From NCBI GenBank assembly GCA_043818055.1, contig JBDRGF010000075.1, positions 10,078-74,077 of the forward strand: DNA of 64,000 nucleotides. Reading direction: 5' to 3'. The DNA comes from Pseudomonadota bacterium. GTDB taxonomy: Bacteria; UBA10199; 2-02-FULL-44-16; JBDRGF01. The notes under the pieces were generated by a model. The model was given only the letters and a program-made list of their open reading frames with translations. It made no database searches and had not been told where the DNA came from. The translations under genes were made by a program, and so were the position numbers. The stretch's first letter is position 1. Each line of letters begins with the position of its first letter. Positions 1 to 39,797 of this stretch are shown here, in pieces.

Positions 1-16
1 ATAAGAGTAAGGTGTT

Positions 17-691
17 TTAGCTTTTAATGTTTTTTCTCAGAACTTCAAAGGCAGACAACTTTCCATAACAGACCAAAACGCAGGAGTCAGGAATTTTTGT
101 GCTTGCCGGAGGAAGCGACATAAGCCCTTTAGAATCTTCGAGAGATAAGACCATGATCTTGCGTTCTCTCAGGCCCGATTCCATCAACGTCTTTCCCGCC
201 AGTGGGGAAAATTCATCGACGGTCAATTTTACAATACCATAGTTATTTTTTTGATTTAAGAGCTGTTCAAGATTTGTATATTGCAGATCGGTTACCTGTG
301 TCAGTTTTCTCTTTGCCCATTTATTCAAACCGTTGTTGAACCTTGCGAACCTTGAAAGGAAATTTATCAGGGCTACGACTCCTATTACGGTCAATATGGT
401 GAATCCTGAGCTTGAAAATTTTCCCCCACCCAGAGATACGATGAATGTGGCGAGAACAGAAACGATACCTGCGTTTCCGAGTATGATGAGATAGGTGATG
501 ATCTTTCGTCTCTTGGGATGATGGAGGATCATCTCAGATTCCCTAGTCGTAAAGCCTGTGCTGGAAAATGCTGAAAGCGCCTGAAACCGAGCGACATCCT
601 GAGGCAGCCCCGTGAGCTCGAGGGCGATTCCCCCGAGTTTTACGATCGTGTATGAAAGAATTATAAAGAGGCCTAATAGTATTAAACTCAT
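17..691 (-). CDS. Membrane protein with C-terminal TrkA-C (RCK_C) domain
   Basis: FQALSAFSSTGFTTRESE channel-like motif, TM helices, C-terminal SPLAGKTL..GLRE..IMVL (RCK_C-like). Start moved to MSLILL (691); the longer ORF runs through the regulatory region. Confidence 0.75.
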   Translation of the reverse strand: MSLILLGLFIILSYTIVKLGGIALELTGLPQDVARFQALSAFSSTGFTTRESEMILHHPKRRKIITYLIILGNAGIVSVLATFIVSLGGGKFSSSGFTILTVIGVVALINFLSRFARFNNGLNKWAKRKLTQVTDLQYTNLEQLLNQKNNYGIVKLTVDEFSPLAGKTLMESGLRERKIMVLSLEDSKGLMSLPPASTKIPDSCVLVCYGKLSAFEVLRKNIKS

Positions 692-734
692 ATTTCGCAG
701 TCTAACATGATTTTGTTTTGAAAACAATGTGGAT

Positions 735-768
735 TCCAAAATCCTGGATCGGAATCCGGGATTTTGGA
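735..768 (+). promoter_or_regulatory. Paired 14-bp imperfect palindromes (putative bEBP enhancer/UAS), operon 1
   Basis: TCCAAAATCCTGGA (735-748) and TCCGGGATTTTGGA (755-768), 20-bp period; same arrangement at 11216-11249. Confidence 0.75.
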
Positions 769-845
769 CAAAATTTTTCATCATAAATATACTAGAAAAA
801 AATCGACCTGTTTATATTTCAACAACTTAATTCCCAAAACAACTT

Positions 846-861
846 TGGCACAATAATTGCT
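846..861 (+). promoter_or_regulatory. Sigma54 -24/-12 promoter, RiPP operon 1
   Basis: TGGCAC-AATAA-TTGCT matches the TGGCAC-N5-TTGC consensus, ~60 bp upstream of the first precursor. Confidence 0.85.
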
Positions 862-922
862 ATAGAGATTTTCGAAGCTCGAGCAAAAACAAATTAACCA
901 ATAACAAAGAAAGGAGAGGAAA

Positions 923-1015
923 ATGGAAGCATTAAAAAAGGGCATTACCGAAATTGAAATCGTCACAGAAGGCTCTGAAGAAGAGATGCTTTGGGGAGTT
1001 GTTGGTGGTAAGTAA
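923..1015 (+). CDS. RiPP precursor peptide A1, 30 aa: MEALKKGITEIEIVTEGSEEEMLWGVVGGK
   Basis: Hand translated; AGGAGAGG RBS; paralog of the next ORF; directly upstream of rSAM genes; too short for the ORF track. Confidence 0.88.
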   Translation: MEALKKGITEIEIVTEGSEEEMLWGVVGGK

Positions 1016-1044
1016 ACCAAAAACAATTTAAAAAGGAGAGAAAA

Positions 1045-1143
1045 ATGGAAACGTTAAGAAAAGACATCAATGAAATTGAAGTTGTCACAGAAGGTTCCGA
1101 AGAGGAGATGCTTTGGGGCGTTGGCGGCAGCAAGAACAATTAA
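1045..1143 (+). CDS. RiPP precursor peptide A2, 32 aa: METLRKDINEIEVVTEGSEEEMLWGVGGSKNN
   Basis: Hand translated; AAGGAGAG RBS; VTEGSEEEMLWGV identical to A1 despite synonymous codon changes. Confidence 0.88.
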   Translation: METLRKDINEIEVVTEGSEEEMLWGVGGSKNN

Positions 1144-1154
1144 TGAATTAATCG

Positions 1155-1191
1155 TGTATGGGGGAGTCAAACTTGCGACTCCCCTCATACA
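1155..1191 (+). terminator. GC-rich stem-loop after the precursor genes (attenuator or mRNA stabiliser)
   Basis: TGTATGGGGGAGTC / GACTCCCCTCATACA inverted repeat; no U-tract. Confidence 0.6.
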
Positions 1192-1202
1192 TCATATCTA
1201 CT

Positions 1203-2549
1203 ATGAAAAAACTACTATTAAATAAAAATGTTATTATCAGGGATGAAAGATCATTTTGGTTGATGTTTAATCCTAATAATGGAGCTACTGTTAAATTGAA
1301 CAATGATATTGGTAGTCATATCAAAAAGACACTAGATAATGATGAAAAAAAATTAAACATACCAAACATCAGCGAAAGAACGATCGATGTTTTAAACAAG
1401 GAAGGATTTCTAATAAAAGATGGATGTAATAAAGAAGTCTCCCTGAACAATCGCGTTCAAATCGGTGAAAGATGCAATTGGGTGGTTGGCCCTCAGATAG
1501 AATTCAGTTCAAAAATCTCTCCCGTAGGGTTGCTTTGGGAGATAACAAACATGTGTAATCTGAATTGTGTTTATTGTTTGCCCAATGCAAAGGAAAAAAG
1601 AAAAAACAACAAAGAGTTATCAGCTAATGAATTGAACACCATAGTCGACAATATCATAAGGGCAAAGGTTTGCAGGGTGACGATATCGGGCGGTGAGGCG
1701 TTGCTTAGAAAAGATGATATGTTTCAGATAGCCAGAAAATTAAAATCTGCAAACATAATGGTGGGAGCTATTTCGAATGGATTGATCATTGACGAAAAGA
1801 TGGCAGATGAGATTAAAGAATTGGGAATTCTCATGGGCGTTAGTTTGGATGCTCCGAAGGGAAATATCAATTGTATAACAAGGGGAAAAGGCGTTTTTGA
1901 AAAGGCTCTGACTGCTATTAGGTTGTTGAAAAAAAGAAAAATTCCATTTAATGTGATATCTACAGTTACCAATATCAACTTCGACTACCTTCCAGAATTA
2001 TTTCTGTTGCTCAGGTCTATAGGAGTTACCAATATCGGCCTTCAGGATTTAAAACCATCAAATCCGGATGTGTACGAAAAATTTAAACTTACAAGAGAAC
2101 AAGAGCTAAAAATAAATGACATGTACGCATATCTTAAATCAACTTATCCGGAGATATGCTTTAATGATAACGAATTGAGAATCTTTTCAGGATTGGTTGA
2201 TAAAAATGGATGCGAAGACAAAACGATAATGAGGTGTTTGGCAGGCACAGTTACTGGATATATCAATAGCGAAGGTGACATGTTTCCATGCACAAGTTTA
2301 AAAAGCTTAAAAATGGGGAATGCTGTTGAGGATGAAATTACACAGATGTGGCAGCATTCAGAAGCAATGAAAAAGCTAAAGAAAATGAAAAATCAAACTA
2401 CAGATGTATTAAGTGGTTGTGATCAAAGCTGTCCCATCAAGAAAACTTGCGATGGGGGCTGCCGAGGAGAAGCCTTTTATTTAAATGGAGATTGGAGTTC
2501 CTTGCATCCTAGATGCTTGAAGATATTAAGATATGAAAATAAAATTTAA
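1203..2549 (+). CDS. Radical SAM/SPASM peptide maturase (PqqE/MftC/AlbA-like), possible N-terminal RRE
   Basis: CNLNCVYC, SGGE, SPASM CLAG..GDMFPC and CDQSC..CDGGCR..C; ~100 aa N-terminal extension. Start 1203 preferred because 1158 lies in the hairpin. Confidence 0.88.
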   Translation: MKKLLLNKNVIIRDERSFWLMFNPNNGATVKLNNDIGSHIKKTLDNDEKKLNIPNISERTIDVLNKEGFLIKDGCNKEVSLNNRVQIGERCNWVVGPQIEFSSKISPVGLLWEITNMCNLNCVYCLPNAKEKRKNNKELSANELNTIVDNIIRAKVCRVTISGGEALLRKDDMFQIARKLKSANIMVGAISNGLIIDEKMADEIKELGILMGVSLDAPKGNINCITRGKGVFEKALTAIRLLKKRKIPFNVISTVTNINFDYLPELFLLLRSIGVTNIGLQDLKPSNPDVYEKFKLTREQELKINDMYAYLKSTYPEICFNDNELRIFSGLVDKNGCEDKTIMRCLAGTVTGYINSEGDMFPCTSLKSLKMGNAVEDEITQMWQHSEAMKKLKKMKNQTTDVLSGCDQSCPIKKTCDGGCRGEAFYLNGDWSSLHPRCLKILRYENKI

Positions 2550-3564
2550 CACATTTGATTTTCTGATCACAAATGCATGCGACAAAAGATGCTCGATATG
2601 CTGCACCAATCCGCATGCCATGAATGAAATCCAGCATTTAAAATTCAATGATTTTTGTGGGGTTGTCGATTGTATCGAAAAATACTTAGAAGAAAAAAAC
2701 GAAACAGGCAACTGGGGGATTTCGGGGGGAGAACCCTTTATGTATAGTGATCATGAGGTGGGAAAAAATTATACGCTGGTTGATATTGTGGAATATCTTA
2801 GCACAAAGAAATTTATAAATAGTGTTTCCATCAGAACGTCAGGCTTCGATATAAATTCAAAACAAAAATTGATTTTTGATGCATTAGAGAAACTCAGAGC
2901 ACGCAAATTTATCACTTTTACTACTAGCTACAATTTATTTCAAAAAGGAGACATCAACGAAAGATTGAAGTGGATTTTACCAATATGGCTGGAATCTCAA
3001 GATAATCTTGAGATTCAAGTTATATATAATAAATCCAATTATCAAAAGACCTTGGATGGCTTAAATCAGTTGCTAAAGACGGCAAATTTACTTGTCGATA
3101 AATCACAGACCATAAAAATCTTGCAGGAAAGATTGCACAAGTCAAATTATTATAGCTGGTCTATCGATGGAAAGAGAGTGGATATCAAAACATACCCGGC
3201 GTATTCTCATGGGAAAATTGATGGTGAAGAGTTTTTTGAGTTCAAGACAGCAAAATGCGTTTCACTATCAAAAGCGGATTCAAACGCTGTCTTAGTCGTT
3301 AATTTTGATGGAACGCTACATCATTGTTGTAATCCGTATTATAGTTTTAAAAGACGGTTTTTTTCACCAAAGATAGAAGGTCTTTTAAGTGGAGGAATAG
3401 CATTGGAAGATATCGCCAATTTGTTTTCAGATGGTATGGAAAGGGTTCTGCTTGAGCCAAAAATAAAATATAATCTCCAGAGAGATTATTGCGATATGTG
3501 TTCAGTACTACTCTTTGGACCTGTAATTACAGCAGAAGGAAAGTTTTGTGAAAAACCAAATTGA
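2533..3564 (+). CDS. Second radical SAM protein (twitch/SPASM-like C-terminus)
   Basis: CDKRCSIC motif, SGGEP, C..VVNFDGTLHHCC and terminal CDMC. Confidence 0.8.
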   Translation: MKIKFNTFDFLITNACDKRCSICCTNPHAMNEIQHLKFNDFCGVVDCIEKYLEEKNETGNWGISGGEPFMYSDHEVGKNYTLVDIVEYLSTKKFINSVSIRTSGFDINSKQKLIFDALEKLRARKFITFTTSYNLFQKGDINERLKWILPIWLESQDNLEIQVIYNKSNYQKTLDGLNQLLKTANLLVDKSQTIKILQERLHKSNYYSWSIDGKRVDIKTYPAYSHGKIDGEEFFEFKTAKCVSLSKADSNAVLVVNFDGTLHHCCNPYYSFKRRFFSPKIEGLLSGGIALEDIANLFSDGMERVLLEPKIKYNLQRDYCDMCSVLLFGPVITAEGKFCEKPN

Positions 3565-4969
3565 ACAATTGATCAGCTATTTTCCTGGCGATTATGTCGA
3601 AGCCGCGGTTCAGCATAAGATGGTAAACTCATTCTCTTTGCTAAATGGAAAAGGAGATGGAACTGATTTCAGCGGGACAAAAACTTCTGCGAGAGTGACT
3701 TTGTACAGGGGTGGACAAAGGCTTCACCTGCCGATCAGAGAAATAAATGGCAGAATTTCATTTTCGGATTTAAAAGATAAGATTTTTAATTCTCATTTCG
3801 ATAATAAATTTGATGTATATTATAATAAAAACGGTTTTCAAAGGCTCCAAAAGAAATCTAAGAATATACTCCGAGATAAAGAGGCTTTTTACTTAACAAA
3901 ATGCAAGTTGCCTTTCAATTCAATCAACAACAACACAAAAAGAGAGATATTTGCAGATAGATTGATAAAATGTGATAGGTGTAAGCCATCCTTTGTCGAT
4001 CTGATAATTTTTTATCAGGATTCTATGACAGAAACCTGCTATTATAATTCCAACAATTTCTATCATAACAGAGTGGATAGCATGATTGAATTCTCCGGTT
4101 TTCTTAAATATGAGAGAAAACTATATCCAATTTTTTCGCACAACGAAATGGCAGGATTGGAAGTTTTGGTTGATTATGTTTTTGGGAATGGATTTGAAGA
4201 AAAGATCGAGATGATAAAAGTATTTAAGAATGCATGGGCTACAAAAATAAAGTCGGGAATCTATAATGTGATCTTGGACCCAACGCTTGGTGCGGGCTTA
4301 ATTCACGAAGCATTTGGTCATACTTGTGAGGCGGACATCTCATTCAGTAAAAATGTTAAAGGTCGAAGGGAGTTATTTGCCAAATTTAGAAATGAAGACA
4401 TCACTATTGCCGATGATCCAACAATTGCTGAAAAGGGGTTTGTCTATATTGATGACGAAGGGGTTATGGCTAAAAAAAAATATCTTGTTGAAAAGGGAGT
4501 TCTTAAATCCTGCATGCATTCAATATTTACAGCTACAAACAATAATTCAGAAGTTATGGGAAATGGCAGAACATCTGATGCGAGCCAAATTCCAATTCCA
4601 AGGATGACAAACACTTATATCGAGCCAAAAAATATCAGTCTGACAGAAATGTTCAGTTCCCTTGACAATGGATTGTATCTCAAAGGTAACATTGGAGGTG
4701 GTAAAACAAACGGAAGAAAGTTTTCTTTAAATGTTGAACAAGGATACATTGTAAAAAAGGGGAAAATAACAGGGAGCCCTATCTCAAATCTTGTCATAAA
4801 GGGAGATTGTTTTGCTACGATCAATAATATTGTCAAAATAGGAAATGATTTAACATTTGTGAAAGGTTTTGGAGGATGTTCAAAAAAAGGACAAAACAAT
4901 CTTCCAGTGTCGGGTGGGTCTCCTCATCTTATGGTAAAAAATGTTTTTGTAACGCATGTTGAAAGTTGA
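3548..4969 (+). CDS. tldD: TldD/PmbA family metalloprotease (TldD-type)
   Basis: HEAFGHTCEAD zinc motif, DDEG, GNGR..PIPRMTNTY, GCSKKGQ; GTG start. Confidence 0.88.
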   Translation: MKNQIEQLISYFPGDYVEAAVQHKMVNSFSLLNGKGDGTDFSGTKTSARVTLYRGGQRLHLPIREINGRISFSDLKDKIFNSHFDNKFDVYYNKNGFQRLQKKSKNILRDKEAFYLTKCKLPFNSINNNTKREIFADRLIKCDRCKPSFVDLIIFYQDSMTETCYYNSNNFYHNRVDSMIEFSGFLKYERKLYPIFSHNEMAGLEVLVDYVFGNGFEEKIEMIKVFKNAWATKIKSGIYNVILDPTLGAGLIHEAFGHTCEADISFSKNVKGRRELFAKFRNEDITIADDPTIAEKGFVYIDDEGVMAKKKYLVEKGVLKSCMHSIFTATNNNSEVMGNGRTSDASQIPIPRMTNTYIEPKNISLTEMFSSLDNGLYLKGNIGGGKTNGRKFSLNVEQGYIVKKGKITGSPISNLVIKGDCFATINNIVKIGNDLTFVKGFGGCSKKGQNNLPVSGGSPHLMVKNVFVTHVES

Positions 4970-4974
4970 TGTAA

Positions 4975-6948
4975 ATGAATATGAAGATACTCTTAGTCAA
5001 TCCATATTGGTCCATAGTTTCTAAATATACTCCTTATAGTTTATTGCAATTGGGGTCATATATCAATGCAAAGACAATTCATAAAGCAGAAGTGTTAGAT
5101 CTCAACATTGAATTACATGATGATATGTACAATCCTCACATTCTTATTGAAAAGGCTTGTAATTTGGTTTTGCAAAAGGATTTTGACATATTAGGGATTT
5201 CGGTCACCACTATAGACCTTCCGTTTACAGTCAGCTTTACCAAAAAATTTAACAAATTGTGCAATAAGCCAGTTGTTTTAGGAGGGATTCATGCAACTCT
5301 TGCCCCAGATGAGTTATTTTCACTTTGTCCAGTTGATTACATTGTTCGTGGAGAGGGAGAGATAACTATTTCCAACCTTCTGGATAATTTGGATATAATG
5401 AACAATAAAAATCTTAAGGACATTATGGGTCTTTCTTATCGTGATGGGAGTGCGATAGTTCACAATAATAACAGAAAAGTAATTTCCGATCTTTCTATCC
5501 TGCCTCTAGTGGATTATCAACTCATAAAACCATTGAAACATTATTTTATCAACAAACTTAAAAAAAGTTATATCATGTGCAGCAGGGGATGTGGATACAA
5601 TTGCAAGTTTTGTTCAGGCAGTCGAATATGGATGAAACAGCGCAGATTTCCCATTGATAGAATATTGAATGAAATCAAATTTCTAAAAGATTCCGGATCC
5701 GAGTTCATTTCCATCCAGGATGATTGTTTGACTATGAAGCGCTCCTGGTTTTTGGAGTTGGCTGAAGGCATTGGAAAAATAGGCATTAATTGGGGATGTT
5801 TGAGCAGGCTCGACCGCATTGATGAAGATATGCTTGATACAATGAAATCAAGCAGGTGCAAAGAGGTCTATTATGGCATAGAGTCGGGTAGCCCAAGGGT
5901 AAGAAAATTTTTGGAAAAAGGACTGATGTTTTCAAATGAAATAATTATAAAAAAAGTCAAAGACACTTTGAAAAGGGGAATTAATCCAATTTGCTCTTTT
6001 ATGACAGGCATACCGACTGAAACTGAAGAAGAGTTCAATGAAACGGTTAATCTGGCCGTTGAAATTAAAAGGTGTGGTGCAAAACCTCAACTCAACCTGC
6101 TCACTCCACTTACTGGGACTAGACTCAAAGAAGAATACAAAGACAAAATTATTAAATATGACAAGTGGGAGAAAATAGGTTTTGCAGACATTTTTGCAAA
6201 GGATCAACATTGGCTATTCAACTATCTTCTGGATGAGTTGAAGGATTATCTTCCGGACTATTATTTGTTCAAAAATCAAATGCCGCTTAATAGATTTGTT
6301 TCAAAGTATATGAAAGCCAGAAAAGAGCTTTCCCTCGAGAGCAAAAGCAACAAGATGTTTTTTCTAGATAGAACAGAAGATGAGATATTGGTGCTCAATG
6401 GTGAAAGGTTGCGTGTCGATAAAAGCAGTTTTATAGAATTAAAACTCGAATGCGGCATGCTTGATGAGTACAGAGCTCAGCGCAATAAGCTTTCTTCTAA
6501 TATCATTTTTATTCAATTTAAATATTCATCCTTCAAGTGCAATATTATTCCTGAAACAAAGGAATTTTTAACAGAAATCTTAAAAGAAATTAATTCTGGG
6601 TATCGTATAATTATATTAAATCCCCTGCCGCGTTGTTCACTGTCGGATGAAGCGACGAAACTGTTACGTGAGATAACGCTCCCTCATAATTGTCTTTGGT
6701 GTTCAAATCTTTTTTATAAATGTTTGGATAAGATAAAAATGTGCTCAGCCATAGGGGATGATGTTGAGCTCAAGGTTCCATTTGAACACATAGATAGCAG
6801 GAATAGAATATATCGCTATTTTGTAAAAGAAACTTTGGATAAAAATATAATCAGTGATAAAAAGTGTAGTGAATGTTCAATGCAACGAGATTGCACTATG
6901 CTTTGCATAGGTAGAGGTGATCGACAAAACAATGAGAGTTTTGCATGA
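4975..6948 (+). CDS. Cobalamin-dependent radical SAM enzyme (class B methyltransferase-like) with Cys-rich C-terminal extension
   Basis: B12-binding N-terminus (LGGIHAT, GEGE), SRGCGYNCKFC, GIESGS; C-terminal CLWC and CSECSMQRDCTMLC. Confidence 0.88.
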   Translation: MNMKILLVNPYWSIVSKYTPYSLLQLGSYINAKTIHKAEVLDLNIELHDDMYNPHILIEKACNLVLQKDFDILGISVTTIDLPFTVSFTKKFNKLCNKPVVLGGIHATLAPDELFSLCPVDYIVRGEGEITISNLLDNLDIMNNKNLKDIMGLSYRDGSAIVHNNNRKVISDLSILPLVDYQLIKPLKHYFINKLKKSYIMCSRGCGYNCKFCSGSRIWMKQRRFPIDRILNEIKFLKDSGSEFISIQDDCLTMKRSWFLELAEGIGKIGINWGCLSRLDRIDEDMLDTMKSSRCKEVYYGIESGSPRVRKFLEKGLMFSNEIIIKKVKDTLKRGINPICSFMTGIPTETEEEFNETVNLAVEIKRCGAKPQLNLLTPLTGTRLKEEYKDKIIKYDKWEKIGFADIFAKDQHWLFNYLLDELKDYLPDYYLFKNQMPLNRFVSKYMKARKELSLESKSNKMFFLDRTEDEILVLNGERLRVDKSSFIELKLECGMLDEYRAQRNKLSSNIIFIQFKYSSFKCNIIPETKEFLTEILKEINSGYRIIILNPLPRCSLSDEATKLLREITLPHNCLWCSNLFYKCLDKIKMCSAIGDDVELKVPFEHIDSRNRIYRYFVKETLDKNIISDKKCSECSMQRDCTMLCIGRGDRQNNESFA

Positions 6949-9900
6949 AAAGGATATATACAGAAAGATTCTACATTCTTTCGGTTGCTGTCATCATCAT
7001 TCTGGCGGGTATCTATTACTCCCTAAGAATCCCCATAGAGTTATATCCCAACGCCACTCAGACGAAAATAACAGTCCAAACTCATTATAAAAGTCTATCT
7101 CCTTTCGCCTTTAAAGATCGTTATGGAGATTTGATAGAAAAAGAATTGAATGGAGAAGGCGAATTTGAAGAGGTAGATTGTAAATATCAATACGAATATG
7201 CAATTTGCAGGGGAAAGTTGCCGTTCGGTTCAGATGATCATGTAATTTTGGAAAGGGTAAAAAACAAGCTTGAACCAATTTTTTTGTCATTTCCCGCTGA
7301 ATGGAAAGAGGCAGAGGTAAACTTTGGCGATTCCAACAAGGGAGTTCTTATAATAGCATTATACTCAAAAAATATACCTCTGAAAAAGGTCTATGATGAG
7401 ATATCGCCATCGATCAATTCGTTCCTTTCGACTCATCCCGATGTCAGTGTCGGTGAAGTTTCAAATCTTTTTGAAAAAAAGATTTCAATAAGCATAAAAC
7501 CAAATGTTGAAAATAAAATCACCAAAGAAATGATCTTTAATCAACTTAGTTCTTCAAACAATGATATTAAAACCATTGGAAACATTTCCATTGAAGGAAA
7601 TATTCTTTCAATAGAAGCAAGTTCAAAATTGATAGAAAGCCTTGATGATCTCGAAAATTTCAAGCTTTTGACCAAACAAAATGAGATACTAAAGCTGAAA
7701 GATATCGCCGACGTAAAAATCATTCCAGTCGAACCTAATGAATTGTTTAAAGGAAATAATCAAAATTCACTCATAGTGTGGGTTGCTCCTCAGGCAAAGG
7801 CTAACCTGGTTAATTTTAGCGATTCCATCGAATCCAAAGTCAAAGCAGAGATTAAACGTTTCAACGGCGAAGTTACTGCTCAAACGCTTTTGAATCCGGC
7901 ATCTTTTATCAGGAACGCGGTTAAAGACATTTTGTATTCATTGATTATCAGCGTGATACTCTCTGGAATTGTCGTCTTCTTGTTTTTGGGATCCTTGAAA
8001 TATTCCACAGTTATAAATCTAGTCATGCCCTTGTCGTTATTTGGCACTATTTTATTCATGTATATCTTAGGTATAGAAGTGAACCTCATTTCAATGGGGG
8101 CAATGGCCATTGCAATAGGCATGGTTGTCGATGCATCTATAGTGGTAATAGAAAATATTTTTAGGCACCTGCAAAATACGCATCCGAAGGATTATTCCGA
8201 GAAACTTGGAATCTATGTCAAAGCTGTATCAGAAGTTAAAGGTGCACTTTTTTCGTCAACGATAACGACCATATGTGTTTTCGTGCCACTGCACTATGCC
8301 TCTCCTCTTGTCAGCGCCATCTTGGGAGATGTTGCGACGGTGATGACGCTCAGTCTTTTTCTTTCCATGATAATGGCCATCTTTTTTGTTCCTTCAATCC
8401 TTTTGTGGATAAATCCAGATATCACGCAGATGGAAAATTTAAAGCACAAGTCCAATTTTCTAAATAGATGTTTTACAAATATTCAAAAATACTACTCAGA
8501 GGCAGTTAAATGCTTTATCACAAATAAAGTCATCAATGTCCCGATTATAATAACATTGTTAATCCTCTTTTTACTATCTTTATATTTGGCTGTTTACAAG
8601 ATTGACCACGAACTTATAGCAACACCGACATCAGATATAATTGTTTTTCATAGGGGTAATTCAAAAGACGTTGACAGCATTGCTACGCAGGAAAAGGATT
8701 TTCACGATACTGAGCGGGAGGTGTTTAAGCTAACATCTGACTATGTTGATTTTACGCTTACCGTCTTGCGCAAGGATTTAGCGATGATGTTGTTGCACAT
8801 CAAAAATGAAAAATACAAAGAAACATTGAAACAACTTCTCATAAAAAAATATAAGAGCTCAGAAAAATATGAATTCAAGGTAGTCGATTGGGTTCCAACG
8901 CAATTTGAAATACCAGACCCACCACAGATGAAGGTGTTGATCGGCGGTGCAAGCCCAGCTGAAAGCAAATTGATTCAGGCTGAGGTGGAAAAATTCATTT
9001 TAGCAAACAGCAAAACGGTAAGGTCTTATTCCATTCCGACAAGCCTAACTTCGGATGAGATAATCGTTGATATAGACGTTGAAAAACTGGGTTATCAAAA
9101 CAGAATTCACGGAACATCTTATTCAAAAAAACAAATCCTTGATATCTTGAATTTTCACGCGAAAGAAAAATATTTAAGGCACATGAAGTTTGATGGAGCA
9201 AAAACAGCGGTATTTCTTGAATCGGACTATCCCAAATTAAAGAGAGAAAAGATTTCAAGCTTTAGCATACCGTTTGGGAACGGATCGCTAACGCTGGATA
9301 AAATCGCAGACATAAAATTAGTCAAATCAGATAGTGAGATTCACAGCTACAATGGTGGTATGCAATATGAAGTAGATGCCTTTTTTTCGGACAAGGGCTT
9401 CACATATTTCGATGAATTTTCAACAACATTAATTCATAAATTTGGTAAAGAGAAAATATCAACACATTATCCTTATGGACTGATAAACGATACAATAAAC
9501 AAACTCTTTTGGGCATTGGCTGTTTCCTGTTTGCTCGTATTCCTTGTGGTTTTTTTACAATACAGGAACATCTATTACACCTTAATAATATTGATGGCAA
9601 TTCCTACTAGCGTGATTGGAGCTCTCATTTCATTATATATATTCAAATCAACTCTTGGCATGAACGCGCTTTTGGGTCTCATTTTGCTTTCAGGCATAAG
9701 TGTCAACAGCACAATCATCATCATAGATTTTTACGATAAAATAGGCTCTGACGACATCGCTGACGGAATTGTTCAAACGATGAACTTGAGATTAAAGCCA
9801 ATTTGCATGACTGCCTTTACCACTGTCATAGCAATGGTACCCATCGCTGTAAAATTATTCAGCGGTTCAGAGGCGCTGCAGCCGCTGGGAATAACGATAA

Positions 9901-9998
9901 GTTGCGGATTATTTGTTTCAACACTATTGATACTCTTTATCGTTCCCTGGCTACTCTATTGTTTGCCGAAGAAGAGAGTTGGGAAATCACAGTTATGA
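6945..9998 (+). CDS. RND efflux permease (AcrB/CusA family)
   Basis: 1017 aa, GMVVDASIVVIENI, RLKPICMTAFTT, two periplasmic domains and TM blocks. Confidence 0.9.
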   Translation: MKRIYTERFYILSVAVIIILAGIYYSLRIPIELYPNATQTKITVQTHYKSLSPFAFKDRYGDLIEKELNGEGEFEEVDCKYQYEYAICRGKLPFGSDDHVILERVKNKLEPIFLSFPAEWKEAEVNFGDSNKGVLIIALYSKNIPLKKVYDEISPSINSFLSTHPDVSVGEVSNLFEKKISISIKPNVENKITKEMIFNQLSSSNNDIKTIGNISIEGNILSIEASSKLIESLDDLENFKLLTKQNEILKLKDIADVKIIPVEPNELFKGNNQNSLIVWVAPQAKANLVNFSDSIESKVKAEIKRFNGEVTAQTLLNPASFIRNAVKDILYSLIISVILSGIVVFLFLGSLKYSTVINLVMPLSLFGTILFMYILGIEVNLISMGAMAIAIGMVVDASIVVIENIFRHLQNTHPKDYSEKLGIYVKAVSEVKGALFSSTITTICVFVPLHYASPLVSAILGDVATVMTLSLFLSMIMAIFFVPSILLWINPDITQMENLKHKSNFLNRCFTNIQKYYSEAVKCFITNKVINVPIIITLLILFLLSLYLAVYKIDHELIATPTSDIIVFHRGNSKDVDSIATQEKDFHDTEREVFKLTSDYVDFTLTVLRKDLAMMLLHIKNEKYKETLKQLLIKKYKSSEKYEFKVVDWVPTQFEIPDPPQMKVLIGGASPAESKLIQAEVEKFILANSKTVRSYSIPTSLTSDEIIVDIDVEKLGYQNRIHGTSYSKKQILDILNFHAKEKYLRHMKFDGAKTAVFLESDYPKLKREKISSFSIPFGNGSLTLDKIADIKLVKSDSEIHSYNGGMQYEVDAFFSDKGFTYFDEFSTTLIHKFGKEKISTHYPYGLINDTINKLFWALAVSCLLVFLVVFLQYRNIYYTLIILMAIPTSVIGALISLYIFKSTLGMNALLGLILLSGISVNSTIIIIDFYDKIGSDDIADGIVQTMNLRLKPICMTAFTTVIAMVPIAVKLFSGSEALQPLGITISCGLFVSTLLILFIVPWLLYCLPKKRVGKSQL

Positions 9999-11233
9999 AA
10001 ATGTTAGGCGCATTAAAATTGAACAGAAATTTTTGGCTGCTCATAACAGGCCAGTTCACATCGAATATCGGCAGCACAATTTCAGAGCTGGGAATATCTT
10101 GGCTCGTCCTCAAGGAGTACTCGATCACAGAGTTTACCATATTTTCCGGAATATGCTTGCTGCCAAGGGTTATTCTGACTCCTCTGTTAGCCCCCCTCTT
10201 TGAAAGGGTGAATAAGAAGTTGCTGATGATCTTGTCTGATATCGTAAAAGGCATCTGTTTGTTTACAATGTATCTGCTCTTTCTCACGAAGGGTCTCAGA
10301 TACGAGTATATCGTTTCCTTGATGTTTGTTCACGGACTTGTCGGCGTTTTGTTCAGCATTGCGGTAGAACCTCTGTATTACGACATATTATCGTTGGACG
10401 AATATCCAAAGGGGACATCGCTCAGAGAATTATTTGGCCGCATGGCGCCTCTCATCGGACCTTCAGCGACTGCCATAATAATGGCAATATCCGGAAACAT
10501 CGGTCTTTTGCTTCTTATAGATTCAATTACTTTTTTTGTCTCAGCCCTTTGTATCGTTTTTATCCGCTTGCATATGAAAACAGACTTTGAAAAAACGCCC
10601 AAGACAACAGGGTTTAGTTCGTATGCTAAAAATCTGTTTCAGGGGTTGGCGTATGTCAGCAAAAACAAAAATCTGTTGATGCTCTTTACGTCGTTGATAG
10701 CGATTGGGTCTATGTTGGGGGTTTTGGCTTCAATAATGCCGATATACATACGGGATCATCTCTCTTCGGGAGTTGTTGGGTTGAGTATTTTTCAGTTGAT
10801 AGGTAATGCAGGCGCTATAATCGTAGCTATCGGATTGACGATTTGGCAGTACAAAAGCTCACATTCGAGTATATATTCCTTTGGCGTTGGCATCATTGGC
10901 ATTGTCGTCATGGGGCTGGTCGTCACTTCAAATTTCTATGCAGCGACATTCATATACTTTTTGCTGCAGGTGACGATCACCATCGCAAGCTATGCGGCAA
11001 AAATCCTTTTACGGGAAAATATCGAAGATGACTACAAAACCAGGGCATATTCGTTGATGTCCATGGAGCAGCTGTTGCAACCGATAACCATCTCTCTGTC
11101 AGGGCTCGCAATAAAAGCAATCGGGATTGATAGCATCGTGATGATCATAGGTATTACTATAATGATAATAGGGCTTGTTTTGTTGGTGATAAATTTTAAA
11201 ACGAGTCTTGTTTTTTCCAGAATTTTGGACTGA
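9995..11233 (+). CDS. MFS transporter (macrolide-efflux/DHA3-like)
   Basis: NRNFWLLITGQFTSNIG start, ~12 TM; ATGA overlap with the RND stop. Confidence 0.85.
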   Translation: MKMLGALKLNRNFWLLITGQFTSNIGSTISELGISWLVLKEYSITEFTIFSGICLLPRVILTPLLAPLFERVNKKLLMILSDIVKGICLFTMYLLFLTKGLRYEYIVSLMFVHGLVGVLFSIAVEPLYYDILSLDEYPKGTSLRELFGRMAPLIGPSATAIIMAISGNIGLLLLIDSITFFVSALCIVFIRLHMKTDFEKTPKTTGFSSYAKNLFQGLAYVSKNKNLLMLFTSLIAIGSMLGVLASIMPIYIRDHLSSGVVGLSIFQLIGNAGAIIVAIGLTIWQYKSSHSSIYSFGVGIIGIVVMGLVVTSNFYAATFIYFLLQVTITIASYAAKILLRENIEDDYKTRAYSLMSMEQLLQPITISLSGLAIKAIGIDSIVMIIGITIMIIGLVLLVINFKTSLVFSRILD

Positions 11234-11249
11234 AATCCAGGATTCTGGA
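11216..11249 (+). promoter_or_regulatory. Paired 14-bp palindromes (putative bEBP enhancer/UAS), operon 2
   Basis: TCCAGAATTTTGGA (11216-11229) and TCCAGGATTCTGGA (11236-11249), 20-bp period. Confidence 0.75.
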
Positions 11250-11336
11250 CAGAAAATTAGGATTTTATCCGGCTAAATTGACTGTGTAGTTGTGTAACCA
11301 TATAAAATATAACGTTTTGTGTTTTTTCCTCCACTT

Positions 11337-11352
11337 TGGCACATGGATTGCT
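11337..11352 (+). promoter_or_regulatory. Sigma54 -24/-12 promoter, RiPP operon 2
   Basis: TGGCAC-ATGGA-TTGCT; flanks ACTTTGGCAC....TTGCTATA identical to promoter 1. Confidence 0.85.
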
Positions 11353-11510
11353 ATATATTTCAAAAAGTTAAGCAACAAGTTGTAATAGAGTGCGATAATG
11401 GTGGGGTAATATAAAGTTACGTAATGAAGTTTTTATATTCAAATTGAAATTGAAATTTATTTTCTAATGAAACATGACTTACCGTAATGATAATCAATGG
11501 TAAGAGGCAT

Positions 11511-12731
11511 ATGGTAAATAATAAAAACCTTTTACAGATATCCTACTTTATTAATCAATTAGGTACTTATACAAGCTATCTTGCCATCATTGCAATAGCT
11601 CGGGAACACAATAATTCTATAAATTCTATTGCTATGGTATTGGGTGCTTCAGCGGCAGGGACAATGGTTGGGTGGCTTTTGACAATGAAATATCTTAAAA
11701 ATGTGCACGCAAAACTTCTCCTTTCGTCATCGTTGATATTGTCAGGTTTGATGATGGTATCAATTTTATGTCTGGTTAATTGGTGGCTAGTTGTTGCTGC
11801 TTTTTTTGTGTTAGGAATGTGTACCAATACCTACATGTCATCATTCTATACTTTAATTCCCAGGATGATCAAAAAAACAGATGTGCCTAATATTAATCAG
11901 AACATTCAGATATTGTCTCAATTAGCCATAGTTATAGGTGCGATTTTGGGCGGCATTTTGTTAGATCGGTTTGGGTTTAGGCTTCCGCTATTTGTTGATA
12001 TTATTTCTTATTTATTAGTTGGGGTTGTTTATATGTGTCTTTCCCATAATAGATTTGTAATTTTATCAGCAGAGAAAGCGAATGATAATACGAAAGACCA
12101 AGAAGTGGTACGTCCAAAATGTCCATTTCAAAGGACATTGTTATTTTCTCCATTGGTGTTGGCTTTTCTGGTGGCTTTTGCTGCAGGTGCATATAATGTG
12201 ATTGAAATTCCATTTTTCACCGATATTTTAGGGTTGCCCTATCGCTACATTGGATTTTATTTTTCAATTTCGGTATTGGGAATTCCAGTTTTTCATGCTT
12301 TGGTACGTAAAAAGATGTTGCAAATGGAGTCGCTGCGATCCCTGTTTATCGGTATTGCATTAGGTGGTTTGGTTTATTTAGTATGGGGTATGCAGAGCAG
12401 CTTATGGATAACTGGTCTTTTGTTAATTTTATTCAGCCTCTTTCAATTAGTTATATTCACTTCAGTGAATAATTATCTACATGCCCATGTATTGGAAGAT
12501 AATAAACTTCAAACGGTTTTTTCAACTTTGCAATTTGGGAGACGTGTGGCAGCTCTGCTGGGTAAATTAGCGATTCCCTTTATTGTAGGTTTTGCAGGAG
12601 AAAAATTTTCTTTTTCAGTGCTAGGTGTTATTATGATAATTGGATTGATTGTTGTTTTGATAACCAAAAGAGTGATAGAAGGAAGTATGAGTATTGTTGG
12701 AGATTTACAACAAAATGCCGCCGAATATTAA
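11511..12731 (+). CDS. MFS transporter
   Basis: ~12 hydrophobic segments, GGILLDRFG motif; start after AAGAGG RBS (alternative 11487). Confidence 0.8.
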   Translation: MVNNKNLLQISYFINQLGTYTSYLAIIAIAREHNNSINSIAMVLGASAAGTMVGWLLTMKYLKNVHAKLLLSSSLILSGLMMVSILCLVNWWLVVAAFFVLGMCTNTYMSSFYTLIPRMIKKTDVPNINQNIQILSQLAIVIGAILGGILLDRFGFRLPLFVDIISYLLVGVVYMCLSHNRFVILSAEKANDNTKDQEVVRPKCPFQRTLLFSPLVLAFLVAFAAGAYNVIEIPFFTDILGLPYRYIGFYFSISVLGIPVFHALVRKKMLQMESLRSLFIGIALGGLVYLVWGMQSSLWITGLLLILFSLFQLVIFTSVNNYLHAHVLEDNKLQTVFSTLQFGRRVAALLGKLAIPFIVGFAGEKFSFSVLGVIMIIGLIVVLITKRVIEGSMSIVGDLQQNAAEY

Positions 12732-12750
12732 ATTAGAGAAAGGAGGAGGT

Positions 12751-12831
12751 ATGAAGCAAATGGATTTGCTTGGATTGGACAACATTGAAATTCAGCAAGA
12801 AGGATGTTGCCCTCAGGGAATTGACGGATAA
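12751..12831 (+). CDS. RiPP precursor peptide A3, 26 aa: MKQMDLLGLDNIEIQQEGCCPQGIDG
   Basis: Hand translated; strong AGGAGGAGGT RBS; GLDNIEIQQEG matches the A1/A2 leader; followed by hairpin, methyltransferase and rSAM. Confidence 0.82.
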   Translation: MKQMDLLGLDNIEIQQEGCCPQGIDG

Positions 12832-12864
12832 TACATCAAGAATATTCATATTATTATGAATCTA

Positions 12865-12902
12865 TTATCCGGGGGATCTCATTGCTTTAGTCCCCCGGAT
12901 AA
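12865..12902 (+). terminator. Stem-loop after precursor A3
   Basis: Perfect 12-bp stem TTATCCGGGGGA / TCCCCCGGATAA; no U-tract. Confidence 0.6.
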
Positions 12903-12925
12903 CATGATTCAAAAGGAGTGATGCG

Positions 12926-13936
12926 ATGAATCCTGTAAGTCAGATGAGAAGTTGGATTAATTCTATGCACATTGCTAAGGCTGTTAATATTGGTGTTGAG
13001 GTGGGATTATTCGGTGTGATTGCTGAAATAAAATGTCCAACAACAGTTCAAGAACTAGCCAGGCAAGCTTGCTGTGATCAGGGATATGTAGAATCCTGGA
13101 TACATGTTATGCAAGCGGCAGGAATTATTGATGTTGATCAAAATGGTCATCTGTCGTTTGTTAGTGACTGGAAGGAAGCCCTTACAGATCGAGATAGTGA
13201 TAAATATGTGCCGCCGATGATGGAATGTCATTTCGCTATTGCAGATACCTATCCGAGATTTGCAAAATTTTTTAGAAATGGAAATTGCATGCATTCAAAT
13301 GAATTCAGTGAACCACTGCTGGTCGGTATTGCTGCGGATGCAGTGCGATTTGCAAACTATTTTTTGCATGTAGCTGTGGATAAGATTCCAGATTTGAAGC
13401 TAAAACTGGAAGAAGGAATAGATGTTTTAGACGTGGGTTGTGGTGGCGGGCAATTTCTTTCAAAAATAGCAACACAATTTCCAAAGTCGCGCTATGTAGG
13501 TATCGACCCGTTAGATAAAGTTATTGATATGGCTAGGGAGGAGGCCAAACATTATAAAGTAGAGAGTAGAGTAGATTTTATTGTCGGTTGCGGTTCCGAA
13601 ATCAAAAAGGAATGTGCTGATTTAATAATTCTTAATGAAGTACCTCACGAAATGGATGCTAAAGTAAGACAACCGGTGCTGGATGCTTGTTGTAAAGCAT
13701 TGAAAAAGGATGGTCTTTTGTTTCTGGTTGATATTTTGGCCCCCGAAAATGCCGGGGATTATGTACGGCCTAATTTCTTATTATCATCACTAGTTCAGTT
13801 TTTTGAAAAACCATGGGGTTCAAAATTGTTGACATACTCAGAATTGAAAATCTTAATTAGAAATGCAGGTTTTTCGGATTTGACACACTTGGTGTCAGCA
13901 GATGATGTAGTTGTCGCATATACAAAACCCATATAG
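12926..13936 (+). CDS. Class I SAM-dependent methyltransferase with N-terminal winged-helix domain
   Basis: VLDVGCGGG motif I, GID, ALKKDG; N-terminal wHTH/dimerisation-like region. Confidence 0.85.
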   Translation: MNPVSQMRSWINSMHIAKAVNIGVEVGLFGVIAEIKCPTTVQELARQACCDQGYVESWIHVMQAAGIIDVDQNGHLSFVSDWKEALTDRDSDKYVPPMMECHFAIADTYPRFAKFFRNGNCMHSNEFSEPLLVGIAADAVRFANYFLHVAVDKIPDLKLKLEEGIDVLDVGCGGGQFLSKIATQFPKSRYVGIDPLDKVIDMAREEAKHYKVESRVDFIVGCGSEIKKECADLIILNEVPHEMDAKVRQPVLDACCKALKKDGLLFLVDILAPENAGDYVRPNFLLSSLVQFFEKPWGSKLLTYSELKILIRNAGFSDLTHLVSADDVVVAYTKPI

Positions 13937-13944
13937 ATATATTA

Positions 13945-15177
13945 ATGAAAAAAAATTATCATAATATTTTAGTTGATGGAAAAAAAATTCGTTTTTATCC
14001 CGATGAAATGTTATTTTATAAAGGCAGTTCATTTCCGAAGGATGTGGATAAAGATAGAAATGTGAGGCCATCCGTTTGTAAATCGGTAAAGATCGCAAAC
14101 AGCAGGAAACTACAACTGGCGTTGACAATCACTAAGAGCTGCAACATGAAATGTACATATTGCTATGATAAGAAAAATATGAATATTTCTTCTAATTCGA
14201 AAAATATGCATTTTAGTACACTATGCGATGCAGTGAATAAGTTTTGTAATAGCAGGATTGGTAATTACAATATACATTTCATAGGTGGAGAGCCGCTTTT
14301 ATGTCTGGATTTAATCAAACAAACTGTAGATTATTGCAATAAGAAGGCTGCAATTGATAGCTCGGTATTTACATATAGTATTTCGACTAACGGTACAATA
14401 ATTGACAAAGCCATAGCAAAGTATTTTTCCGAAAATAAAATTAAAATAAGATTAACCTTTGATGGTGTAGAAGAATCTCAGAATGTCAATCGACCGATGC
14501 GCAATCGGGAGCAGAGCTTTTCTCATGTGGTACGATCGTTATCAAATCTAAGAAATGCAAGTTGTGATTTTAGTGTTATATCTGTACTTCATCCCAATTT
14601 TCTTCATAAAATGCTTAAAGCTTTTGAAAATATAATTCAATACAATCCAAATGCGATAAAATTTGTTCCTCTAATAAATATAGATGCGCTTGGATGTAAG
14701 TATGTCAGTGATCATAGTGTCATGTTTGCAGAATCTCTTCGGAATATCGCTAATCAATTGATCAGTAGAAAAGATGAAAAAACAATTATGAAAATTAAGA
14801 ATATAAGCGTGTATTTGCCTTATATTCATAATCGTATAGCGAACATCAAGGGGTGTATTGCAGTTAATAAACAATCATATGCAGTGAATGTAGATGGTTC
14901 TGTGTATCCATGCTCAACCTTTGTTGGTATAGATACTCATCGTTTGGGGATGATAAATGATTATGAACTCAATCCTAATTCCATAAAATGTGAATCAATA
15001 ACGACGAGATGTTTATCCTGCTGGGCACGAACATTATGTCCTGGAGTATGTGCTTATACTGCCGATAATAATTCAGCATGCTCATCAGCAATGAATTGTG
15101 AGTTTATAAAAGGAGAGATTACTGTTGCTTTGGAAGTATATAGCAAGTTGTATCCTCATAAAATTAGAAGGGAGTGA
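13945..15177 (+). CDS. Radical SAM/SPASM protein (anSME/ranthipeptide-maturase-like)
   Basis: CNMKCTYC, FIGGEPLL, STNGT, SPASM C..VNVDGSVYPC and CLSCWARTLCPGVC..C. Confidence 0.88.
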   Translation: MKKNYHNILVDGKKIRFYPDEMLFYKGSSFPKDVDKDRNVRPSVCKSVKIANSRKLQLALTITKSCNMKCTYCYDKKNMNISSNSKNMHFSTLCDAVNKFCNSRIGNYNIHFIGGEPLLCLDLIKQTVDYCNKKAAIDSSVFTYSISTNGTIIDKAIAKYFSENKIKIRLTFDGVEESQNVNRPMRNREQSFSHVVRSLSNLRNASCDFSVISVLHPNFLHKMLKAFENIIQYNPNAIKFVPLINIDALGCKYVSDHSVMFAESLRNIANQLISRKDEKTIMKIKNISVYLPYIHNRIANIKGCIAVNKQSYAVNVDGSVYPCSTFVGIDTHRLGMINDYELNPNSIKCESITTRCLSCWARTLCPGVCAYTADNNSACSSAMNCEFIKGEITVALEVYSKLYPHKIRRE

Positions 15178-15186
15178 CGAATTGCC

Positions 15187-16371
15187 ATGAATAACCTAAT
15201 AAAAAAAGCATTTCAACTTTGCTGTTTTTTAATTATCATACTAATACCATTTTATATTCAAGCGGATCAAAATATTACAATAGCGCTGGTGAATAATTTT
15301 TCGGATTTTAGATCTCCATGTGGTGATCCTAAAGGAGAAAACTTTTTGAATGCTTTGAATTTAGCATTGGAAGATTTTTTAAAAGATCATAAAAAATATT
15401 CAGATCAAATAATACTTAGAAAATATGATTATGGTAATTCACCACTTAATACGGAACGTATTACATTAGAAGCTGTTCGCTCCGATGCAGTAGCATTAAT
15501 TGGATATCCATGCTCTAGTTTTGCTCTTCTTGCTGCTCCAATAGCTGAGGCGCACAATGTTGCTATGATTACGCCATCGGCTACAATTGATTCATTAACC
15601 GAGAGTCGTGAATATGTATATCGCGCTTCATTTAGGGATGAAGATCAAGCTAAAGTTATGGCGGAATTTCTGGCAAATGATCTGGATAAGAAAAAGGCTG
15701 TAGTTATTGTTAATCAGAATTACCCATATTGCACTAATTTATCAGAGCAATTCCAGCATTATTTTAAAAAATATGGAGGAAAGATTGTAAAAGTGTTTAA
15801 CACGCTTTCGAGCCAAAAAAGCTATAATAAAGAAGTAAATGAAATGAATCACTTATCATATGATGTAGTTTTTATTCCTAATCATGAAATGGAGAGCGCT
15901 ACTATGGTTAAAGAAATATATAATTTGAGTATGGAAACCACTGTTGCTGGTGGAGACGGATGGGGGAATTTGTATGGGTATATTTTTCCTGCTATAGTTG
16001 GAAATAAAAAAATTGATGCGTATGCAATTGCTCATTGGAATCGTGATTCTGTTGACACTAGTTCAAAAGAATTTCAGAAAAGGTATTATAATCGTTTTGG
16101 ATTTTATCCAAACGATAATTCAGCATTAGCTTATGATGCTATGAGTCTGCTTTTACATGCAATATCTAAGGCGAAAAAAATAAATAGGAAAGAAATCAAC
16201 GCAGAGCTCAAATCAATCCGGTCTCATTTCGGTGTAACTGGGAGATTCTCTTATAATCGAGGTAATGGAACGCCTTCAAAAAATGTTTATATAGTAAAAT
16301 ATCCTCAACCCAATTTGTCTCATGAAGGTGATCGTAGATTTGAGCATTACAAGAGTGTTATCGTAAAATAA
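15187..16371 (+). CDS. Periplasmic binding protein (LivJ/branched-chain amino acid-binding family)
   Basis: Signal peptide; ALIGYPCSS, ITPSAT, GGDGW, ALAYDA, GVTG motifs; no ABC permease or ATPase nearby. Confidence 0.85.
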   Translation: MNNLIKKAFQLCCFLIIILIPFYIQADQNITIALVNNFSDFRSPCGDPKGENFLNALNLALEDFLKDHKKYSDQIILRKYDYGNSPLNTERITLEAVRSDAVALIGYPCSSFALLAAPIAEAHNVAMITPSATIDSLTESREYVYRASFRDEDQAKVMAEFLANDLDKKKAVVIVNQNYPYCTNLSEQFQHYFKKYGGKIVKVFNTLSSQKSYNKEVNEMNHLSYDVVFIPNHEMESATMVKEIYNLSMETTVAGGDGWGNLYGYIFPAIVGNKKIDAYAIAHWNRDSVDTSSKEFQKRYYNRFGFYPNDNSALAYDAMSLLLHAISKAKKINRKEINAELKSIRSHFGVTGRFSYNRGNGTPSKNVYIVKYPQPNLSHEGDRRFEHYKSVIVK

Positions 16372-16372
16372 T

Positions 16373-18154: not shown

Positions 18155-18177
18155 ATTCGCTGAGATGGGAGGCAAAG

Positions 18178-19584: not shown

Positions 19585-19682
19585 ATTGATTATCTTTTAG
19601 TTTATCGCCACTTTTCGTTGCATTCCCTTTTACAGTTAGCTAAATGGAATTGATCACAATTTCAAAACATAGGAGGGCATCG

Positions 19683-20417: not shown

Positions 20418-20440
20418 TCAGCTGAAGGGAGTCTTTCGGG

Positions 20441-21163: not shown

Positions 21164-21185
21164 TCAACGAAAGGAAATTTCAACC

Positions 21186-28985: not shown

Positions 28986-28986
28986 A

Positions 28987-30384: not shown

Positions 30385-30406
30385 AAAAAACTCCAAAAAA
30401 ACAGTA

Positions 30407-30433
30407 GTAGGGGTGGTTCGCGAACCATCCTAC
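30407..30433. repeat. GTAG-type REP palindrome
   Basis: GTAGGGGTGGTTCGCGAACCATCCTAC. Confidence 0.75.
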
Positions 30434-30436
30434 CTT

Positions 30437-33789: not shown

Positions 33790-33792
33790 TTT

Positions 33793-34884: not shown

Positions 34885-34894
34885 TCGCTAGAAA

Positions 34895-34918
34895 GGGCGG
34901 TTCGCGAACCGCCCCTAC
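34895..34918. repeat. GTAG-type REP palindrome
   Basis: GGGCGGTTCGCGAACCGCCCCTAC. Confidence 0.75.
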
Positions 34919-34924
34919 ATTAGT

Positions 34925-36325: not shown

Positions 36326-36327
36326 AT

Positions 36328-36705: not shown

Positions 36706-36739
36706 AGTTTAACCTCTAAAACAGTTGCTTGTTAATAAT

Positions 36740-39794: not shown

Positions 39795-39797
39795 TTT

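Follow-up and report, generated by a model that had tools for sequence, protein, structure and literature searches.

There are two operons in the window, a stretch of 64,000 nucleotides from a Pseudomonadota bacterium (contig JBDRGF010000075.1), that are each preceded by a predicted sigma-54 promoter and a tandem pair of palindromic sites. Judging from their predicted genes, both operons likely make small modified peptides. We favour, with a probability of roughly 0.6, the reading that these dyad pairs are bound mainly by the local enhancer-binding protein encoded at 18178-19584, which would thereby activate its own genes together with both peptide-maturation operons. The anatomy of the promoters is itself ordinary. 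The window is nevertheless of value because its exact, testable sites connect a named activator with two peptide-maturation operons that are uncharacterised, and because a set of nine co-designed promoters is exposed in one genome.

Two sigma-54 promoters with paired upstream sites

The sequence ACTTTGGCAC-N5-TTGCTATA, which a preliminary description had reported for both operons, is found at 842-864 and 11333-11355, and the pattern TGGCAC-N5-TTGC has only two matches within the whole window, which are the two operon promoters. A -24/-12 element of the form GG-N10-GC is present upstream of each operon (846-860 and 11337-11351, both on the plus strand), and transcription is predicted to start at 872 and 11363, respectively. 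Four 14-bp palindromes had been described as well, and all are present at 735-748, 755-768, 11216-11229 and 11236-11249, with a period of 20 bp in both pairs. The reported distances of 78 and 88 bp are reproduced when counted from the last base of the downstream 14-mer to the T of TGGCAC.

These palindromes are better read as 16-mers, which places the putative upstream activator sites 1a and 1b at 734-749 and 754-769 and sites 2a and 2b at 11215-11230 and 11235-11250. The 16-mers fit GTCYRR-N4-YYRGAC and GTCY-N8-RGAC, with an outer base that is often A or T. Their centres lie at -130.5 and -110.5 relative to the predicted start of promoter 1 and at -140.5 and -120.5 for promoter 2, positions that agree with the NtrC-type expectation of about 100-150 bp upstream. 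Site 2a overlaps the final codons of the MFS transporter gene at 9803-11233. The sites of promoter 1 are probably intergenic, because the divergent gene for a TrkA-C domain membrane protein (17-784, minus strand) probably has its true start near 691.

The sequence TTTCAACAACTTA, noted previously as a near match to an integration host factor (IHF) site, is indeed located in operon 1 at 817-829 on the plus strand, 16 nt before TGG, and has one mismatch to the IHF consensus WATCAANNNNTTR. Boxes of this kind (at most one mismatch, 15-18 nt before TGG) are present in 8 of 16 promoters of the family discussed below versus 2 of 51 other strict sigma-54-like matches, and 2000 shuffles placed a box in at most 2 of the 16. 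These 16 promoters were chosen by their dyads and are not independent, because related copies are among them. The genome encodes RpoN (contig C104, E 1.5e-65) and has five IHF/HU-family genes.

Chance does not readily account for the arrangement. Site pairs with a sigma-54 consensus at a distance of 60-100 bp occur nine times in the 2.93-Mb genome and not once in any of 102 locally shuffled copies, and there are 29 strict sigma-54 matches in the genome versus a shuffle mean of 4.0. Among 163 sigma-54-like matches, ten are accompanied within 200 bp by a site pair with a score of 21 or more out of 24. Nine of these pairs lie at 70-86 nt, and the tenth, on C99, lies at 185 nt, a further single site being found at 73 nt. 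A matrix trained only on seven non-window promoters of the same genome recovers 11 pairs genome-wide, of which ten have a sigma-54 match within 200 bp. They comprise the seven training promoters, the C35 promoter, both window pairs and one C92 pair that lacks a sigma-54 site. Consensus, shuffles and cross-prediction thus support the original proposal of sigma-54 promoters with paired activator sites upstream, and both elements very likely represent functional sigma-54 enhancers.

The preliminary description had presented the motif as a candidate operator. It is instead an activator-type site of the published LurR/NrfR class and not a new motif. In the accessible part of one report, the Desulfovibrio sites of LurR are 16-mers that were validated by electrophoretic mobility shift assay and are bound also by NrfR (PMC6456213), and one published LurR site likewise has a relaxed outer base. 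The DVU0653 and DVU3023 rows in supplement 3 of a second report, as far as that source is accessible, list 16-mers of the same form (PMC4641369). Because of the cross-prediction, these published 16-mers and matches to the pattern in sequence databases, the motif is judged to be real, functional in form and of a known class.

It is most improbable that the tandem palindromes are explained as an RNA hairpin or a terminator, or as a dispersed repeat whose location near sigma-54-like sequence is accidental. Both pairs do fold strongly as RNA (z -3.4 and -4.9), pair 2 is located at the end of operon 1, and some family promoters have been copied together with their flanks (C73:228 and C35:228, z 16). 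However, complementarity between sites at the free central bases is at chance among the nine pairs of this genome (16 observed versus 16.8 permuted), with 31 versus 29 among 23 outside pairs, and on this ground an RNA hairpin is rejected as the selected feature. In addition, pair 2 is absent from the terminator-like sites, and the two window promoters keep the motifs while their spacers are unrelated. The genome-wide motif scan that had been recommended also does not reveal a common dispersed repeat, since 10 of the 11 matrix pairs have a sigma-54 match nearby.

Similarly, we consider it highly unlikely that the dyads are operators of a regulator unrelated to sigma-54, such as the nucleotidyltransferase-domain protein encoded on C92. 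The C92 pair is the third-best match of a matrix trained on the window and is positioned directly before that gene, and a sigma-70-like match overlaps site 1b. Yet the region contains no more sigma-70-like matches than chance predicts (69 found versus 69.5 expected), the geometry of sites 110-140 bp upstream of a -24/-12 element is that of an activator, and the site class has been validated for enhancer-binding proteins in the accessible part of PMC6456213. The C92 pair itself (C92:2037-2072, locus L089), which has a period of 20 and precedes the nucleotidyltransferase-domain gene without a sigma-54 site, is probably a look-alike operator.

A promoter family and its candidate activators

Six of the nine promoters front radical S-adenosylmethionine (SAM) or methyltransferase clusters, namely both window operons, C73:228, C35:228, C33 and C3:5617. 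Genes for a binding protein and a same-family kinase are also present in three of these six clusters, and C99 is a fourth such cassette. The remaining three promoters front a 4124-amino-acid Lnt-RHS protein, an Ig/LamG lipoprotein and an unknown protein of 94 amino acids. This set of co-designed promoters suggests that several gene sets for making and sensing peptides share one switch. The spacers of the two window promoters align no better than shuffled sequences (z 0.3), and promoter 1 resembles the C60 and C88 promoters by spacer alignment. The architecture had been called duplicated, but a recent local duplication of promoter 1 into promoter 2 is ruled out because the spacers are not detectably homologous. 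Rather, copies of the promoter module have spread through the genome, and the two window promoters have nothing but the motifs in common. Nor do the two operons, said earlier to define a regulon, form a demonstrated closed one, because nine promoters share the site class and six close paralogues of the activator are present.

Several loci in this genome deserve mention in their own right. The 4124-amino-acid open reading frame (ORF) (C3:24670-37044, minus strand; L079:671-13045) encodes apolipoprotein N-acyltransferase (Lnt) domains joined to DUF6531 and RHS repeats, and is located behind a family promoter and downstream of a same-family kinase with a Cache domain. At C33:45439-53262 (minus strand, L077), a family promoter precedes an unexplained biosynthetic cluster of four radical SAM genes together with genes for an aminoacyl-tRNA-synthetase-like and an ATP-grasp protein. 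The promoter at C60:35933-44749 (plus strand, L082), the relative of promoter 1, has one good dyad and fronts an alanine racemase, an ABC transporter, a RimK-like ATP-grasp protein and unknown genes. At C38:165-6830 (minus strand, L088), several tandem Cys-rich short ORFs are clustered behind a sigma-54 element with weak dyads, along with genes for a radical SAM enzyme, a methyltransferase and a binding protein of family 5. Finally, the family promoter at C3:80-5578 (minus strand, L078) precedes a 24-amino-acid ORF, a PqqD-like protein, three ORFs with radical SAM motifs and an MFS transporter.

The local activator (18178-19584, plus strand; the open frame begins at 18151) is intact and consists of a receiver domain, an AAA+ domain with GAFTGA and a Fis-type (HTH_8) helix-turn-helix (HTH) domain with the helix SRSSFYSK. 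Apart from the window pairs, no strong pair with a period of 20 is linked to a sigma-54 site, the period elsewhere being 21-22, and the outer G is missing from 5 of 8 window half-sites versus 1 of 28 in the other promoters. Thus, the window pairs are a distinct subtype with a period of 20 and a relaxed outer base. The recognition helix of the local activator, SRSSFY, is likewise its own, the paralogues having xR[TA]TL[YF]. Activators encoded beside database matches of the paired design have helices that are similarly rich in serine (SKSSLY, SKSVFY, SRSTLY or PRSSFY), and were detected at 8 of 13 genome loci (seven of them from one lineage) and at 2 of 25 mostly short metagenome loci. The HTH domain alone matched no solved structure. 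From these sequence features and the location of its gene in operon 2, it is quite likely that the local activator binds the window dyads, and probable that it is the main activator of both promoters.

In trees of the activators, a vertical clade, mostly single-copy, is distinct from an expanded one that contains the paralogues of this genome and three from genome G014; the first tree left out three distant in-genome activators and the second left out three rows. A test of whether five in-genome paralogues form one clade gave p-AU 0.20. The vertical orthologues have the helix xRTT[LF]Y, and 24 of their 27 loci could be parsed for upstream sites. Among 13 parsed single-copy loci, five have a GTTCRG-type pair with a period of 19 and a score of at least 21, located 84-105 nt before the activator's own sigma-54 promoter, and a sixth period-19 pair is found 43 nt from its promoter. 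In some relatives (L043:2204-8123, which is G008:C15, and L120 and L121), the vertical activator heads its own operon and is followed by further genes and then the family kinase; in G008, a weak methyltransferase-like gene and one for a binding protein lie in between.

The paired design was detected by a pattern scan at 13 places among 185,579 genomes and in 25 metagenome stretches, one of them identical to promoter 1, and there were no matches in viral contigs. A metagenome search with the radical SAM enzyme of operon 2 found no relative. A strict pattern made from the genome's own sites matches six places in this genome and none in 92 other genomes of the phylum, but it is too strict to show absence. 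The same holds for a strict ancestral-site pattern, which has no match in 22 genomes, because looser scoring finds such pairs. The kinase family is present in 26 of 93 phylum genomes. Of 20 outside kinase loci, several of which are truncated at contig ends, four have a clear sigma-54 element and dyad pair upstream, and two have a weaker one. The cassette of G008, which belongs to another family, is orthologous (its methyltransferase is 39% identical) and has a sigma-54-like element that is preceded by an exact IHF box at 15 nt and a degenerate dyad at 73 nt.

Several observations weigh against the preferred reading. The genome encodes six close paralogues of the window activator (E of at most 1e-95, one of them cut by a contig end), so cross-activation is likely, and the paralogous activators probably cross-bind to some degree. 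A site almost the same as 1b is found 87 nt before the promoter of an orphan paralogue on C51, a distance similar to the 86 nt of promoter 2. Kinase-only cassettes on C35 and G008:C9 have the promoter design without an adjacent activator, which implies that action in trans occurs in the family. In addition, the link between helix and motif is drawn from four lineages, the related cassette G014:C49 showed no sigma-54 element upstream, and promoter 2 lacks a convincing IHF box, with three mismatches at the equivalent position. The closest solved relatives of the window binding protein bind branched-chain amino acids. Spacing gives limited help as well. Gaps in this genome, by the 16-mer count, are mostly 70-76 nt versus 86 for promoter 2, and those of 25 de-duplicated outside loci include 13 at 70-77, 8 at 84-89 and 1 at 78-83. 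The 10-bp difference between the window promoters does fit the single helical turn proposed earlier, but helical phasing is weakly supported, as the periodicity test is marginal (p about 0.04) and the modes are nearer 13 than 10.5 bp apart.

These findings raise the possibility that both promoters are driven chiefly by one or more paralogues, the C51 orphan being the foremost candidate, and that the nine promoters form one family-wide regulon served by several kinases. The single site class at nine promoters and the C51 site speak for such a shared pool, as does an AAA+/HTH tree in which the C75 (window) and C51 activators are sisters (97/86). There are also seven kinase-family genes versus six close activators here, and three such kinases with one activator in G008. 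Moreover, the accessible part of PMC6456213 provides a precedent for cross-recognition in NrfR, which binds LurR sites, and this precedent likewise counts against the primacy of the local activator. However, a full-length quick tree does not resolve the sister link, the subtype differences in period (20 versus 21-22) and outer base track loci, and the most divergent helix belongs to the local activator. We regard a shared pool as rather unlikely, and continue to favour the local activator as the main regulator of both operons.

Gene content and the possible input signal

All genes of both operons are on the plus strand. Operon 1 begins with two precursor-like ORFs, A (923-1015, 30 amino acids), which has a strong ribosome-binding site (RBS) and no match in Pfam or NCBIfam, and B (1045-1143, 32 amino acids), which is 77% identical to A over 30 amino acids. 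A strong stem-loop (1154-1192, z -6.6) follows the pair. Next are genes for a radical SAM/SPASM enzyme (1158-2549), a divergent radical SAM protein that scores below the Pfam cut-off (2533-3564), a TldD/PmbA-type peptidase (3548-4969) and a B12-binding radical SAM enzyme (4975-6948), the first and the last two being assigned by Pfam/NCBIfam. Domain scans identify the remaining products as an RND (AcrB-family) transporter (6945-9998) and the MFS transporter whose gene contains site 2a.

Operon 2 starts with another MFS transporter gene (11487-12731), followed by precursor-like ORF C (12751-12831), which encodes 26 amino acids with a Cys-Cys pair and has the IEIxxEG motif common to A and B. A strong stem-loop (12865-12902, z -5.1) is located between ORF C and the genes for a SAM-dependent methyltransferase (12926-13936) and a radical SAM enzyme whose best NCBIfam match is PapB, below the cut-off (13945-15177). 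A domain scan identified the methyltransferase and the MFS transporter. Downstream are a periplasmic binding protein of the branched-chain amino-acid-binding type (15187-16371, Peripla_BP_6), a membrane hybrid histidine kinase with the invariant His248 and a C-terminal receiver (16373-18154), and the activator. There is no stand-alone histidine phosphotransfer (HPt) relay protein in the locus, and the two Hpt matches in the genome, which is 93.6% complete, are within long frames on other contigs.

Metatranscriptome contigs match 23 of 30 bins of 1-20000 versus 25 of 30 bins of the comparison stretch 44001-64000, and some cross intergenic DNA. Because cover is similar in the comparison stretch and extends across intergenic DNA, nothing follows for transcription starts or levels. 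The precursor genes have no contig cover, which carries no weight in a single run that consists of contigs only.

Established sigma-54 biology includes dimer binding, oligomerisation and looping. By this mechanism, the phosphorylated activator would bind the two dyads as two dimers, oligomerise and reach the closed complex through a DNA loop, perhaps with the assistance of IHF in operon 1. The kinase would phosphorylate the activator in response to a ligand delivered by the binding protein. One possibility is that this ligand is the modified 26-amino-acid peptide product, which would create an autoinduction loop. The gene logic of the family cassettes suggests self-sensing loops of this type, although peptide autoinduction in the window can be put forward only tentatively.

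Alternatively, the same wiring might respond to a nutrient or a host-derived amino acid, with positive autoregulation and no quorum-like loop. The type of the binding protein fits such an input, and several related operons in the phylum combine a binding protein, kinase and activator without a radical SAM gene in the stretch examined. In contrast, genes for methyltransferase, radical SAM enzyme, binding protein and kinase occur as a group in G008, G014 and G085, and four other cassettes of the window genome (C35, C42, C73 and C99) have a tiny ORF just before a methyltransferase or a peptide-type (family 5) binding protein, the ORF of C73 being without a clear RBS. Amino-acid input is a credible minority explanation.

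A still broader proposal, and a somewhat unlikely one, is that this uncultured Gram-negative bacterium has assembled a multi-channel peptide signalling network from sigma-54 parts. Each cassette would make a tiny radical-SAM- or methyl-modified peptide and sense it through its own binding protein and hybrid kinase. The signals would feed paralogous enhancer-binding proteins whose recognition helices and sites diverge in step, with ancestral GTTCRG pairs of period 19, GTCYRR pairs of period 21-22 and NTCCRR pairs of period 20. The targets would be natural-product clusters, the giant RHS protein and surface proteins, and in the window one such channel would be observed in the course of gaining a specificity of its own. 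If true, this would represent agr-like peptide signalling wired via sigma-54 in a Gram-negative lineage, a natural series for studying how duplicated activators and their sites become insulated from one another, and a convenient switch with which these clusters could be expressed in a laboratory host. The mechanism itself is textbook and the site class is already known, and the peptide-signalling network behind them is unproven.

There are two further features of the window near or beyond operon 2. Immediately after the activator gene are three tandem paralogous ORFs (19644-21914, plus strand) that are 46-53% identical, have a P-loop-like start and lack a Pfam match; a fourth relative is located on C2. 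A pel-like exopolysaccharide operon (PelG, DUF3492 glycosyltransferase, GGDEF, TPR and GH114) is present at 26940-45222 on the minus strand.

Comparison with known systems

The NtrB/NtrC-glnAp2 system and IHF-assisted promoters such as nifH combine paired dyads, a -24/-12 element and an IHF box. The window resembles NtrC/glnAp2 in having dyads about 110-140 bp upstream, an IHF-like box between them and the promoter in operon 1, and an activator that is predicted to lie within its own regulon. It differs in its site sequence, in its membrane hybrid kinase with a periplasmic binding protein, and in its biosynthetic cargo. The agr/com and Rgg-SHP radical SAM peptide operons of Gram-positive bacteria combine precursor, maturase, exporter, sensor and regulator in a single locus that controls itself, which the gene content of operon 2 matches, its co-regulation being predicted. 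Those operons use LytTR or Rgg regulators and sigma-70-type promoters, whereas the window regulator is an AAA+ sigma-54 activator that is accompanied by periplasmic binding proteins.

In LurSR (DVU3022/3023) and NrfSR of Desulfovibrio vulgaris, as described in the accessible parts of the reports cited above, a two-component sigma-54 activator is likewise encoded beside its target, with several 16-bp GTCY-N8-RGAC sites upstream of a sigma-54 promoter, a likeness that rests on sites and layout. Related activators cross-bind there. However, the targets are lactate or nitrite genes or a non-coding RNA versus peptide maturation and sensing in the window, and LurR sites are 39-100 bp apart whereas the window sites are in tight 20-bp tandem with a relaxed outer G/C. 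By its predicted targets, which do not include lactate utilisation, the window system is not a LurR regulon.

The Vibrio LuxPQ-LuxU-LuxO pathway, as covered in the accessible part of PMC5394107, also links a periplasmic binding protein, a hybrid kinase and a sigma-54 activator, and several kinases could similarly converge on related activators in the window genome. Differences are the lack of a stand-alone HPt protein in the locus, targets that seem to be operons rather than Qrr RNAs, a putative signal that is peptide-derived, and several activator paralogues instead of one. As predicted, then, the locus works like an agr loop made from LuxPQ/LuxO-type parts, and it belongs to neither family. 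The rows displayed in a Clostridiales supplement (PMC6615313) contain no site of the window type, and a 21-bp inverted repeat is reported for GabR (PMC4279683). In the literature within reach, which excludes subscription journals and preprint supplements, we found no cluster for a peptide or a ribosomally synthesised and post-translationally modified peptide under sigma-54 two-component control.

A PAS-domain activator of Sutcliffiella and Bacillus offers another parallel to the paired design. Period-20 TCC-N8-GGA pairs are located 87-89 nt from a sigma-54 element, and the activator has the helix SKSSLY. It is divergent from a permease and short-chain dehydrogenase operon (functions read by eye), and it differs from the window activator in having an unrelated sensing domain, an apparently catabolic cargo and a distant position in the tree.

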